In this document: positions 25,904 through 29,241 of the stretch, one piece after another | How the letters are laid out: every line of letters begins with the position of its first letter | How positions within the stretch are numbered: position 1 is the first letter of the stretch | Source: an uncultured cyanobacterium | GTDB taxonomy: Bacteria > Cyanobacteriota > Cyanobacteriia > PCC-9006 > JAAUQQ01 | Direction: 5' to 3' | Assembly: GCA_963718615.1 (NCBI GenBank) | Contig: OY970368.1 | Span: forward strand, 4,736,001 to 4,800,000 | DNA length: 64,000 bases | The notes under the pieces: generated by a model | What the model saw: the letters and a program-made list of their open reading frames with translations, nothing else | Told to the model about the DNA's origin: nothing | Database searches by the model: none | Made by a program: the position numbers and the translations under genes

Positions 25904-27343
25904 TTAGAAATTCTCTGGGTTTTGTTTACGTGCTTGAAGTTTGAGCACGACCTCGGCATGCACTTCGCGGGTAATAGGATAAAAGTAGGCCAAAACGATC
26001 CCACAAAGCAACGAAAGCGTTGGTAATGGACCAATAGCCATGCGAATGGCCTGGAGTGCAGAGTCCGGCTGGACGGGTAGGGCCTCGCCAGGACCTGCTT
26101 TGAGAAAGCCTGCGCTCTGAAGGGAGAGACCCACGAGAAAAAGCCCTAGGGCAAGACCAAACTTTTGCAACAAAACCATAAAGCCATAGAAAACCCCTTC
26201 CCGCCGTTGCCCCGTTTTGAGTTCATCTAACTCAATAATGTCAGGAATCATGGACCAGGGCACTAAGTAAGCCGTTGAAACGCCAAACCCGGCCATCACC
26301 GCTAAGGCATACATCAGTCCCACCTGGCCAGGGCGCAATAAAAACAAACCAATTTGGGCAATAATCCACAGCCCCATCCCCATGAAATAGACCACTTTTT
26401 TGCCCAGCCGTTTGCTGACTTGGCTCCAAACAAACAGCATGAGCAAGGCTGTTCCTTGCACCGCGATCATCACAGTGGCAAAGTCCGCCTGCCGAAGACC
26501 CATGCAATTCACCACAAAATAGGGAATGATGCTAGCGGTGATCTGTACGGCGAGCCAGGAGCAAAGGTAGATGCCAATGACATAAAGAAATGGCACATTG
26601 CTAAAGGCGATTTTGAATTGCTGAAACAGGGGAATTTCCGTGTCCTGATTGGCTTGAATGCGTTTGGCCTCAAAGGCAAGCGCCCGTTTGCGAACCCCAA
26701 AGACACACCAGTAAAGGGCTAGGGTGGAGATGACACTGGCGATCGCCGCCAACACCAAATATTGCAACTCGCGCTGCTCTTCAGGTATGACGATAAAGAT
26801 GACTTGAACCAGCAGTAGAGATAAAATACTCCCCCCAATCGAAAACGCAAACCGAAAACTATTTAATTGAGTGCGCTCGTCGTAATCCTGGGTCAACTCC
26901 GGCGTCATGGCCGTATAGGGCAGGTTCACAACGGTGTAAAACGCCTGGGAAATTGCTCCGACGATCACGTAGTACCAGAACAATGCCCAAAGATTAGGCG
27001 TTCCTCCCCCAAAACGGGGCACGATCCAGAGCAAAAAAGCAGAAAAGCCAAAGGGAATGGCTCCATAGAAAAGCCATGGTAATCGTCGTCCCCATCGCCG
27101 CGACTGCGTTTTGTCTGTCAAGACCCCCACGATGGGATCATTGACGGCATCCCAGATTTTACTGATTAAAAGGATGCTGCCTGCCAATCCCGGTGGAATA
27201 CCTGCCACATTGGTAAAAAACACCAACTGCAAGAAAATGATGATGTTGGCGGTAATGGCAGGACCCAGGTCTCCAGCCCCAAAGGCCAGTTTGGTCCACA
27301 AACTGAGGGGAGGATCTATGGAATGAGAAGCAGGCTGCGTCAT
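25904..27343 (-). CDS. MFS transporter, glycoside-pentoside-hexuronide (MelB-like) family
   Basis: WDAVNDPIVG..TD, WGRRLPW, PELTQDYDERT, GQRREGVFYG. Confidence 0.92.
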   Translation of the reverse strand: MTQPASHSIDPPLSLWTKLAFGAGDLGPAITANIIIFLQLVFFTNVAGIPPGLAGSILLISKIWDAVNDPIVGVLTDKTQSRRWGRRLPWLFYGAIPFGFSAFLLWIVPRFGGGTPNLWALFWYYVIVGAISQAFYTVVNLPYTAMTPELTQDYDERTQLNSFRFAFSIGGSILSLLLVQVIFIVIPEEQRELQYLVLAAIASVISTLALYWCVFGVRKRALAFEAKRIQANQDTEIPLFQQFKIAFSNVPFLYVIGIYLCSWLAVQITASIIPYFVVNCMGLRQADFATVMIAVQGTALLMLFVWSQVSKRLGKKVVYFMGMGLWIIAQIGLFLLRPGQVGLMYALAVMAGFGVSTAYLVPWSMIPDIIELDELKTGQRREGVFYGFMVLLQKFGLALGLFLVGLSLQSAGFLKAGPGEALPVQPDSALQAIRMAIGPLPTLSLLCGIVLAYFYPITREVHAEVVLKLQARKQNPENF

Positions 27344-27436
27344 CGAAACCTCCGAGAGACCCCGCGCCTTCAGGCCGGGGAGGGATAGGAGCGCGACCGT
27401 GAGGGAGCAATAATTTAGCGGCTCTCACAGTCAATG

Positions 27437-27445
27437 TACTATAAT
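27437..27445. promoter_or_regulatory. Overlapping divergent -10 boxes inside the IS left end
   Basis: + strand TATAAT at 27440-45, 6 nt before the tnpB ATG; - strand TATAGT at 27442-37, facing the MFS gene. Confidence 0.55.
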
Positions 27446-27451
27446 GTGAGA

Positions 27452-28621
27452 ATGACACAAAAGGCATTCCGATACCGCTTTTATCCAACCGCTGAGCAGG
27501 AAGATTTGCTCAGACGGACGATGGGTTGCGCTCGTCTGGTCTACAATCGCGCCTTGGCTGAAAGAACTCAAGCTTGGTACGAACGACAGGCGCGGGTGGG
27601 GTATGCGGAAACCTCTGTCATGTTGACCCTGTGGAAGAAAGAAGAGGAACTCTCCTTTCTCAATGAGGTCAGTTGTGTGCCCCTGCAACAAGGGCTGCGG
27701 CATCTCCAGAAAGCGTTTACCAACTTCTTTGCGGGTCGGGCAAAGTACCCAAAGTTCAAAAAGAAGCGGAATGGTGGCAGTGCTGAGTTTACCAAGTCGG
27801 CGTTTAAGTTCAAGGAGGGTCAGGTGTTTCTGGCCAAATGTTCTGAACCCTTGCCGATTCGGTGGAGCAGGCAGCTTCCAGAGGGTGCTGAACCCTCTAG
27901 CATCACGGTAAAGTTGACGCCCTCGGGGAAGTGGTTTGTCAGTCTGTTGGTGGACGTGGATATTGAGCCATGGCCGGTTAGTCTCCTGAAAGTGGGGATT
28001 GATTTGGGCATCAACAGCCTGATAGCCCTGAGCACGGGTGAAAAGGTGAACAATCCCAAGTCGTTTAGAGCTAAGCACAAACGACTGAAGAAGGCTCAGA
28101 AAGCGTTGGCACGAAAGGAGAAGGGCTCGAACAACCGTTACAAAGCGCGGTTGAAAGTTGCCCAAATCCATGAAGAGATTGCTAATGCCCGCAAGGATTT
28201 CCTTCACAAGCTGACGACGCGATTGGTGCGCGAGAACCAAACGATCGCCATCGAAGACTTGGCTGTGAAGAACATGGTGAAAAACCCCAAGCTGGCGTTG
28301 TCGATTAGTGACGCGAGTTGGGGAGAATTGGTCAGGCAGCTTGAATACAAGTGCGAATGGTACGGCAGGGAACTGGTCAAGATTGACCGTTGGTTCCCCA
28401 GTTCTAAACGCTGCTCCAACTGTGGGCACGTCGTCGAAAAACTGCCGTTGAATATTCGTGCTTGGGATTGTCCGAACTGTGGTGAACATCACGACCGGGA
28501 TATCAATGCTGCTGTGAACGTATTGGCCGCAGGACTTGCGGTGTCAGTCTGTGGAGCGACTGTAAGACCCGAACAGAGTAAGTCTGTGAGGGCAGGTGCT
28601 ATGAAGCAGAAAGCCTCCTGA
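27452..28621 (+). CDS. tnpB: RNA-guided endonuclease TnpB
   Basis: KAFRYRFYPT HTH; RuvC triad GIDLG, AIEDL, DRDINAA intact; zinc ribbon CSNC/CPNC; start taken as MTQKAF. Confidence 0.96.
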   Translation: MTQKAFRYRFYPTAEQEDLLRRTMGCARLVYNRALAERTQAWYERQARVGYAETSVMLTLWKKEEELSFLNEVSCVPLQQGLRHLQKAFTNFFAGRAKYPKFKKKRNGGSAEFTKSAFKFKEGQVFLAKCSEPLPIRWSRQLPEGAEPSSITVKLTPSGKWFVSLLVDVDIEPWPVSLLKVGIDLGINSLIALSTGEKVNNPKSFRAKHKRLKKAQKALARKEKGSNNRYKARLKVAQIHEEIANARKDFLHKLTTRLVRENQTIAIEDLAVKNMVKNPKLALSISDASWGELVRQLEYKCEWYGRELVKIDRWFPSSKRCSNCGHVVEKLPLNIRAWDCPNCGEHHDRDINAAVNVLAAGLAVSVCGATVRPEQSKSVRAGAMKQKAS

Positions 28622-28684
28622 GTGATCCGGAGAATCCCCCTCCTTCAGGTGGGGGAGTAGTCAAAGGAGATCCCAATTCGCTAG
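28515..28684 (+). ncRNA. Predicted TnpB omegaRNA/reRNA (scaffold to 28664; guide from flanking 28665-~28684)
   Basis: Known TnpB layout: scaffold overlaps the tnpB 3' end and right-end hairpin, and the guide (AGGAGATCCCAATTCGCTAG) follows TCAA; 5' boundary approximate. Confidence 0.65.
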
Positions 28685-28800
28685 GGGGGAGTAAAAAAGA
28701 TGACTCGTCTCAAACAAGCCCCCTCATCGTCATTCTTCGGGCTTTGCCCCCTGTCAAGTGGCCTTAAAGTAGCCCTGAAAAAGCGTTCTCAGCGCAGCAA

Positions 28801-29241
28801 CTAACTGGGGTCACAGCGAATTTCTAACAAAAAGCCATCCGGATCATAGAAATAGATGCCGCGTCCCGTTGGTCGAGTGACTGGTCCGTGGTCGATGGGC
28901 ACTTGATTGGCTTGAAGAACGGCAACGGCTTGATCAAAGAGGGTAGGGTCAATGTCAAAAGCCAGATGATTGGCTCTTGTAAATTGTTGTGTCGGATCGG
29001 GGTGGGGAGGGTGTAAATCGGGCTCCGCAAACAGGTCTAGGATTGCACCATTGGGCAATCGAAAATTGCTGACTTTGCCCGCTGCCACTAGTGATTTAAG
29101 GGTTTCTGGGACCTCGTCTCCTTGCAGCTCATGGAGCCCCAGTAGGTCACCATAAAAGGCGCGCGAGTCATCTAGATTCGCCACATTAAGAGCCACATGG
29201 TGGAAACTGCGGAGGATTCCGGCTGCAAGGGTCGGGACCAT
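28801..29241 (-). CDS. VOC/glyoxalase-family protein
   Basis: FHHVALNV..L..SRAFY, NHLAFDI, YFYDPDGFLLEI. Confidence 0.9.
   Translation of the reverse strand: MVPTLAAGILRSFHHVALNVANLDDSRAFYGDLLGLHELQGDEVPETLKSLVAAGKVSNFRLPNGAILDLFAEPDLHPPHPDPTQQFTRANHLAFDIDPTLFDQAVAVLQANQVPIDHGPVTRPTGRGIYFYDPDGFLLEIRCDPS

Follow-up and report, generated by a model that had tools for sequence, protein, structure and literature searches.

The insertion and its surroundings

In a 64,000-nucleotide stretch of an uncultured cyanobacterium (assembly GCA_963718615.1, contig OY970368.1, positions 4,736,001 to 4,800,000; hereafter the window), an insertion sequence (IS) of the IS200/IS605 type, in which tnpB is accompanied by no transposase gene, directly adjoins the start codon of an intact gene for an MFS_2 transporter, without a target duplication (Table 1). 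The tetranucleotide in front of its left end, TCAT, is the complement of ATGA, so each insertion at this target leaves an ATG facing outward from the left end, and where the target was a start codon the host reading frame remains whole. As a transposon the element is ordinary: its family is known, and its insertion site is the one that a published target predicts. In the lineages to which it belongs, tnpB avoids the three codons whose reverse complements are stop codons, and the docking seen at the transporter gene recurs among its relatives.

Table 1. Features at and around the insertion, numbered by position in the window
Feature	Position	Strand	Description
MFS_2 transporter gene	25904..27343	-	479 amino acids, intact; ATG 27343-27341 adjoins the element
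Target tetranucleotide TCAT	27340..27343	+	complement of host ATGA; expected transposon-adjacent motif (TAM) of TnpB
TnpB-only insertion sequence	27344..28664	+	1321 bp
Left end	27344..27451	+	outer helix, guide GAGA 27356-27359 in the loop, inner hairpin 27360-27380
Reverse-strand open frame	27434..28543	-	370 codons (353 from GTG at 28492); codon-aligned with tnpB
tnpB	27452..28621	+	389 amino acids; in-frame ATG also at 27434 (395-amino-acid open frame 27434-28621)
Right end	28622..28664	+	guide GAAT 28632-28635, hairpin 28636-28657, terminal TCAA 28661-28664
Displaced native MFS upstream region	28665..28800	-	TTGACA 28757-28752; weak terminator-like hairpin 28720-28702
Glyoxalase-family gene	28801..29241	-	Pfam; synteny in 5 relatives; conserved upstream neighbour of the MFS gene

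Identity, boundaries and copies of the element

A search of the element's own genome returned a second full copy (G000:C1:1852035-1853355(-)) with 99% identity across query positions 1-1321 and no further. Because this copy matches exactly 1-1321 and the flanks of the two full copies are unrelated and not duplicated, the boundaries at 27344 and 28664 are proven, and with the boundaries so fixed the GGAGG upstream of the MFS start codon is transposon DNA and not host DNA. An earlier interpretation of the letters alone (the sequence-only reading) had placed the first base of the element at 27344, directly after TCAT, which the second copy with its same ends bears out. The letters quoted in it (TCAT, GGAGG followed by 5 bases and ATG when read outward, GAGA, GAAT and the terminal TCAA) are all in place.

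TnpB matches the Pfam families HTH_OrfB_IS605, OrfB_IS605 and Cas12f1-like_TNB, and so possesses HTH, RuvC (OrfB_IS605) and zinc-ribbon domains, while alignment to the top hit, 9yyg, locates an intact set of RuvC D-E-D motifs (GIDLGI, IAIEDL and HDRDINAA). ISDra2 TnpB (8bf8, 8h1j) is matched over residues 3-366 with an E value of 2.4e-86. Imperfect subterminal hairpins are found at both ends on the same strand (27360-27380 and 28636-28657) in the absence of terminal inverted repeats, and insertion is 3' of a fixed tetranucleotide without target-site duplication, all of which places the element in the IS200/IS605 family as a TnpB-only (IS1341/IS605B type) member. Its right end is presumed to be the 3' part of the omega RNA. 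The only long open reading frames (ORFs) inside the element are tnpB and the frame on its reverse strand; no gene for a Y1 transposase is found there, so that the element is not an autonomous IS605. A cmscan search with E values up to 1 (L001, L004 and L006) yielded no Rfam match for the element, a 434-bp derivative or a left-end relic; with no group I intron found by it, an identity as an IStron was rejected.

The derivatives are two gene-less elements of 434 bp that lie outside the window (G000:C1:4958519-4958952, L004/L007; G000:C1:637246-637679, L005/L008). Each follows TCAT, ends in TCAA and has only the left end (~66 nucleotides (nt), 88%) and the right end (~65 nt, 77%) in common with the full element, around an interior of ~300 nt without an Rfam match. 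One of them is situated 16 nt upstream of an opposite-strand gene start. A solitary left-end relic after TCAT (G000:C1:4121453-4121525, L006) and a tnpB fragment of 163 nt with 82% identity to positions 804-966 (G000:C1:332396-332558, L003) look like leftovers of older copies. A strict left-end pattern, too narrow to show absence, had no match outside the own genome when run across 400 other genomes of the phylum. The contigs of four metagenome runs contained related elements in other flanks, again after TCAT, and neither a piece bridging either junction nor an empty allele.

Target site and guide

All five left ends identified in the own genome are preceded by TCAT. For comparison with relatives, one genome per species was scanned, which gave 80 mostly cyanobacterial loci with TnpB proteins 53-84% identical. 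Four of these loci are cut at the 5' end and 11 are without a recognisable left end (L016, L026, L039, L065, L072, L078, L081, L082, L085, L089 and L090), and left boundaries were set in the other 65; an automatic detector of a hairpin plus guide missed many imperfect left ends. The mapped left ends are preceded by TCAT in 54 cases, TTAT in 10 and TAAT in 1. The first base of the guide is G in all 42 distinct TCAT left ends with a guide motif (6 are without the motif) and A in nine of the 10 TTAT left ends. Right ends in the relatives consist of GAAT, a hairpin and then TCAA.

The sequence-only reading had carried over the pairing rule of IS608 to the guide GAGA and arrived at TCxT as the target. 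Across relatives this rule is borne out by the covariation of guide and target, with boundaries chosen partly by eye, and, as judged from this covariation, the insertion site 3' of TCAT is chosen by the GAGA guide next to the left hairpin. One relative flanked by TTAT (L059, of Pleurocapsa sp. CCALA 161), whose tnpB contains no reverse-strand stops, is located two codons into an open frame of 740 codons, and docking at the 5' ends of genes is thus not restricted to ATGA sites.

How often the element docks at start codons

Empty sites were rebuilt for 48 TCAT loci, those in which both ends and no less than 300 nt of flank are present; the other six TCAT loci were dropped (L025, L032, L035, L041, L075 and L084). 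A site was scored as start-like if its ATG opened at least 100 codons and had at most 20 open codons upstream in frame. By this rule, 10 of the 48 testable relatives are start-like, 24 intergenic and 14 intragenic. The other ATGA sites of these flanks served as background: 69 of 1692 (4.1%) are start-like and 67% are intragenic; among all ATGA sites in the own genome the start-like share is similar (1861 of 43081, 4.3%). The start-codon share of the insertions is clearly above the 4.1% of all ATGA sites (p=2e-5), and intragenic insertions are depleted (14 of 48 versus 67%, p=9e-8). Two further loci, L088 and L079, are true N-termini by eye, though scored as intragenic by the rule. In the own genome, both full copies (2/2) are on start codons, where their left ends face ORFs of 479 and 254 codons, while the three other left ends (two with CCTCC, one with TCTCC) are not at gene starts and face ORFs of only 28, 12 and 9 codons. 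For half of the start-codon copies in the relatives (5/10), an ORF of 100 codons or more in the same direction ends no more than 56 nt upstream, which places these copies inside apparent operons.

Several points weigh against a preference for start codons as such. When the 10 start-like cases are set against the 34 insertions outside genes, the excess over non-genic ATGA sites is modest with the same flanks as the baseline (12.4%, p=0.007) and not significant with the own genome (19.4%, p=0.11). The gene calls were made by crude ORF rules, the relatives are not independent of one another, and for single-copy relatives the boundaries come from a T[CT]AT rule and from alignment by eye. It had been proposed that the element could insert at gene starts without killing the gene; the recurrence of docking, here and in the relatives, stands, whereas a preference beyond the TCAT sites at which insertion is not lethal is not supported. 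The docking habit is real, and because the non-genic baseline of 12-19% gives p values from 0.007 to 0.11, the target motif together with the loss of harmful insertions may suffice to explain it.

The reverse strand of tnpB

The long frame on the reverse strand is codon-aligned with tnpB and can be open only if tnpB is without the codons TTA, CTA and TCA. The tnpB of the element contains one such codon in 390 (among 38 Leu and 26 Ser codons), against an expectation of 10.0 from genome usage (P about 5e-4); so low a content is matched by only 6 of 2273 long ORFs, and the 8 other full-length tnpB genes found in the own genome contain 9-13 each. The same count was made for the 71 loci with at least 300 codons from the start of the match. 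In 38 of these (tnpB GC <0.56), tnpB contains 0-3 TTA, CTA or TCA codons although the flanks predict 10-30 (2.2 in one locus), while 18 of the remaining loci contain 19-32 and 11 lie between. Pooled over the low group, TTA occurs 14 times versus 612 for TTG, CTA 15 versus 292 for CTT and TCA 5 versus 304 for TCT, whereas the control codons ATA, GTA, ACA, CCA and GCA are at normal levels. The stops in the three reverse frames of the low group number 34, 308 and 1188. A quick IQ-TREE tree of TnpB places the low-stop state in several deep clades.

Three other causes were ruled out: a general aversion to TA or to codons ending in A, since the control codons are normal; an effect of host codon usage, since the other tnpB genes of the own genome are normal; and an origin at high GC, since the codons are also absent from relatives whose tnpB is at 42-45% GC.

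In the studied element, the reverse frame is in phase with the MFS ATG and is closed by TGA at 27433-27431 and again by TGA at 27427-27425. Among the relatives, such a frame is open to the left boundary in 11 distinct elements, of which nine end on the TGA of the target ATGA, one runs in frame into the host ATG and one is in the third phase. Several elements have a frame that begins immediately behind the TGA of the terminal TTGA, and in many relatives a methionine codon recurs near its right-end side. The protein that it would encode has no match in Pfam. Four relatives (L043, L066, L071 and L077; elements of 1381-1519 bp) carry extra GC-rich palindromic inserts of ~40-60 nt in the 3' region of tnpB, and in L066 the frame is open across the insert.

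The avoidance of reverse-strand stops is strong and unexplained, and it fits a translational device of harm avoidance without proving one. The idea of harm avoidance survives as a stop-free reverse strand rather than as a donated ribosome-binding site.

The host gene and its displaced leader

The transporter matches MFS_2 of Pfam with an E value of 2.6e-102 (profile 2-427 on residues 21-459; sugar/cation transporter). Seven genomes of the same family contain an orthologue with ~71% DNA identity, and the orthologous proteins are 74-76% identical, full length and have the same start. In 5 same-family genomes the orthologues open with ATGAC (MTQPA.. or MTSADF..), so that the ATG at the left end is the native start of the MFS gene. 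The glyoxalase gene is directly upstream of the MFS gene in 5 same-family genomes, across a gap of 83-382 nt without an insertion. A CTTGACAGG block is common to the window (28757-28749) and the intergenic regions of these relatives, which puts the native promoter region now beyond the right end of the element. The same displaced region (28665-28800) is also presumed to be the guide region of the omega RNA. Between the TTGACA block and the element is a weak terminator-like hairpin with a T run (28702-28720, minus strand), which could be the end of the glyoxalase transcript or a structure of the MFS leader.

The second full copy adjoins the ATG of an intact GUN4-like ORF of 254 amino acids. When the element is taken out in silico, the next upstream stop is only 15 in-frame codons away from the MFS ATG and 3 from the GUN4-like ATG. 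A promoter scan of the element located no outward-facing promoter in the left end, its sole hit being on the plus strand inside tnpB and at the level of shuffled sequence, and no terminator-like site was found on the minus strand inside the element.

The left-end helix and GGAGG

In the reverse complement of 27341-27353, GGAGG is followed by five bases and ATG. The sequence-only reading had taken it for a replacement ribosome-binding site and had proposed to look for conservation of CCTCC, its complement (27349-27353), at left-end positions 6-10. In DNA folds, CTCC at 27350-27353 pairs with GGAG at 27388-27391 as an outer helix. Folding of each distinct left end revealed one design in the element's group: an outer helix that begins ~7 nt in, a loop of 5-6 nt that holds the guide, the inner hairpin and a return arm. 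The arms of the outer helix vary between relatives yet remain complementary. The expected conservation of CCTCC fails, as these bases are the 5' arm of a covarying helix. On this comparison, GGAGG is an arm of a structural helix and not a conserved ribosome-binding site, and the ribosome-binding site that the element seems to donate is probably a by-product.

Some observations nevertheless speak for a portable ribosome-binding site. The motif and its spacing are ideal and belong to the element, both full copies are on start codons, in an actinobacterial relative (L079), which is docked on the ATG of an open frame of 658 codons, CCTCC is found at nearly the same place, and partial motifs are found in L025 and L022. 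The native MFS leader lacks a Shine-Dalgarno sequence, as judged from the leaders of 5 same-family genomes, although for the same reason there was no native one to be replaced. On the other side, most relatives differ at the motif, and their start-codon copies are mostly without a Shine-Dalgarno-like end. The two 434-bp derivatives carry the same CCTCC and the relic carries TCTCC, and none of the three is at a gene start. GGAGG may, according to the fold, be partly hidden, and it could help initiation by accident.

In the relative from Crocosphaera watsonii WH 8501 (L030), a long, near-perfect palindrome with a 28-bp stem and a fold energy of -40.9 takes the place of the left-end hairpin loop, as if a small palindromic element had nested there.

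Mobility

The element is non-autonomous. At least 7 strong Y1_Tnp matches are found in the own genome; they are carried by a resident IS605 of 1.79 kb with divergent tnpA and tnpB, of which there are about six copies that are 96-99% identical (G000:C1:4881727-4883516 and ~five more; L105-L110). Its right end is GAAT...TCAA as in the studied element, and its left end has a block of 12 bases in common with it; the left flanks of the resident copies are not TCAT. Given the resident Y1 transposases and the same right end, it is plausible that the element is moved in trans by them. One resident copy has an apparent 84-nt tandem repeat of its left end. In L016 (Spirulina subsalsa), a right-end-like GAAT, hairpin and TCAA stand in place of a left end 157 nt upstream of tnpB, an arrangement that suggests tandem or nested elements.

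How the insertion may be tolerated

The account that we consider reasonably probable is that of a TCAT-targeting TnpB-only element for which docking is mainly incidental and behind which the MFS gene is expressed by read-through over a stop-free strand. Docking at start codons would be mainly a by-product of the target motif and of the loss of insertions that break genes. The Y1 transposases of the resident IS605 copies would move the element in trans, and TnpB with its omega RNA (TAM TCAT, guide from 28665 onward) would cut empty alleles, by which the copy would be retained. The MFS gene would be transcribed from its own promoter, 1.4 kb away, by read-through across the reverse strand of the element, where the stop-free frame would let ribosomes cover the read-through RNA. 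GGAGG would aid initiation incidentally, if at all. Five points are less easily reconciled with such a passage of ribosomes. In the studied element the reverse frame ends 88 nt short of the MFS ATG; this frame lacks a convincing start signal of its own; the RNA fold of the reverse strand covers the GGAG of the would-be Shine-Dalgarno sequence by the same pairing as in the DNA; the low-stop group has no orientation bias toward the reverse strand, its upstream neighbour being co-directional in 10 cases and opposite in 11; and many insertions are located between divergent genes.

A bolder form of this account, which we put forward as tentative, is that a widespread lineage of TCAT-targeting TnpB elements is built for translational transparency, with one stop-free frame along the whole reverse strand. 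Ribosomes could cross the 1.3-kb insertion in this frame, which in many members opens at the TGA in the terminal TTGA and closes on the TGA of the target ATGA, and could there be handed to the host start codon. The studied copy would then be a variant in which the frame is 88 nt short and GGAGG precedes the ATG. If this is true, start codons and ATGA gene junctions are safe harbours for such elements.

Somewhat more doubtful is simple silencing, in which the MFS and GUN4-like genes have been cut from their promoters and persist as tolerated null or weak alleles, their intact ORFs reflecting a young insertion. The insertion has left the promoter-like TTGACA block 1.4 kb upstream, the ~1% divergence of the two copies is too small for decay to be visible yet, and the docking statistics are compatible with plain tolerance. 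A polar null allele would, however, also hit the downstream genes of the apparent operons in which half of the start-codon insertions of the relatives are located, and among the genes so occupied, NadE-like, GpsA-like and MobA-like N-termini were recognised by eye.

It appears improbable that the reverse frame is a genuine second, protein-coding gene of the element instead of a means for ribosomes to pass. In favour of such a gene, the avoidance is confined to one frame and persists over deep splits of the TnpB tree, many relatives have a methionine codon close to the right-end side of the frame, and neighbouring genes show no orientation bias toward host transcription. Nevertheless, Pfam offers no match, nine of the 11 through-frames borrow their stop from the target site, which is not part of the element, several elements open the frame directly after the TGA of the terminal TTGA, and in the studied element two stops interrupt the frame, for which no clear start is seen. 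Less probable again is that the left end has evolved a portable ribosome-binding site that takes over translation of the host gene, because the bases of the motif covary with their 3' partner as a helix and GGAG is paired in the RNA fold.

Significance

TnpB genes are among the most abundant genes of prokaryotes and are the ancestors of Cas12; the present findings bear on how TnpB elements persist without harming their hosts. Should the TCAT/ATGA target combined with a reverse strand free of stops allow such elements to occupy start codons and operon junctions without polarity, this would be a new strategy by which a transposon avoids costs, and it would explain the strong signature in codon usage. 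For annotation, genes that adjoin such elements are not necessarily broken. For genome editing with TnpB, the present group adds a family with a likely TCAT TAM.

Comparison with known systems

Kapitonov et al. (2016; PMC4810608) described an N|ATGA target without duplication for TnpB-only IS605B elements of cyanobacteria. Among the elements described there, IS605B-1_MA of Microcystis aeruginosa and related ISC elements are, like the present one, cyanobacterial, TnpB-only, of the IS605 type and inserted at N|ATGA. As described in that article, the reverse-strand termini of IS605B-1_MA are 5'-TT...CG-3', exactly like those of the studied element (TTGAC...TTTCG|ATGA). The term "start codon" does not occur in the article text, nor was a mention of a reverse-strand frame found in it; its supplements may show insertion sites. 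The TCAT/ATGA target is thus already known (PMC4810608), whereas our literature searches, supplements not covered, returned no paper on start-codon docking by IS605 elements and none on a reverse-strand frame under tnpB.

Among known systems, the element also resembles ISDra2 with its TnpB and omega RNA (PDB 8bf8, 8exa and 8h1j), in both the TnpB match and the architecture of subterminal hairpins. The studied element differs from ISDra2 in being without tnpA and in targeting TCAT. As in IS608 of Helicobacter pylori, each hairpin is preceded on its 5' side by a guide of four bases that pairs with the cleavage site; the element differs from IS608 in its left target and in an extra outer helix that encloses guide and hairpin. 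ISDra2 itself carries tnpA and targets TTGAT; the left guide and target of IS608 are AAAG and TTAC, and its right-end pair is the same GAAT/TCAA as here. IStrons are IS605-type elements fused to group I introns, which sit in or near genes with little harm. In the studied element no intron was found, and its proposed route of harm avoidance is distinct from that of IStrons in that it would be translational and not based on splicing.

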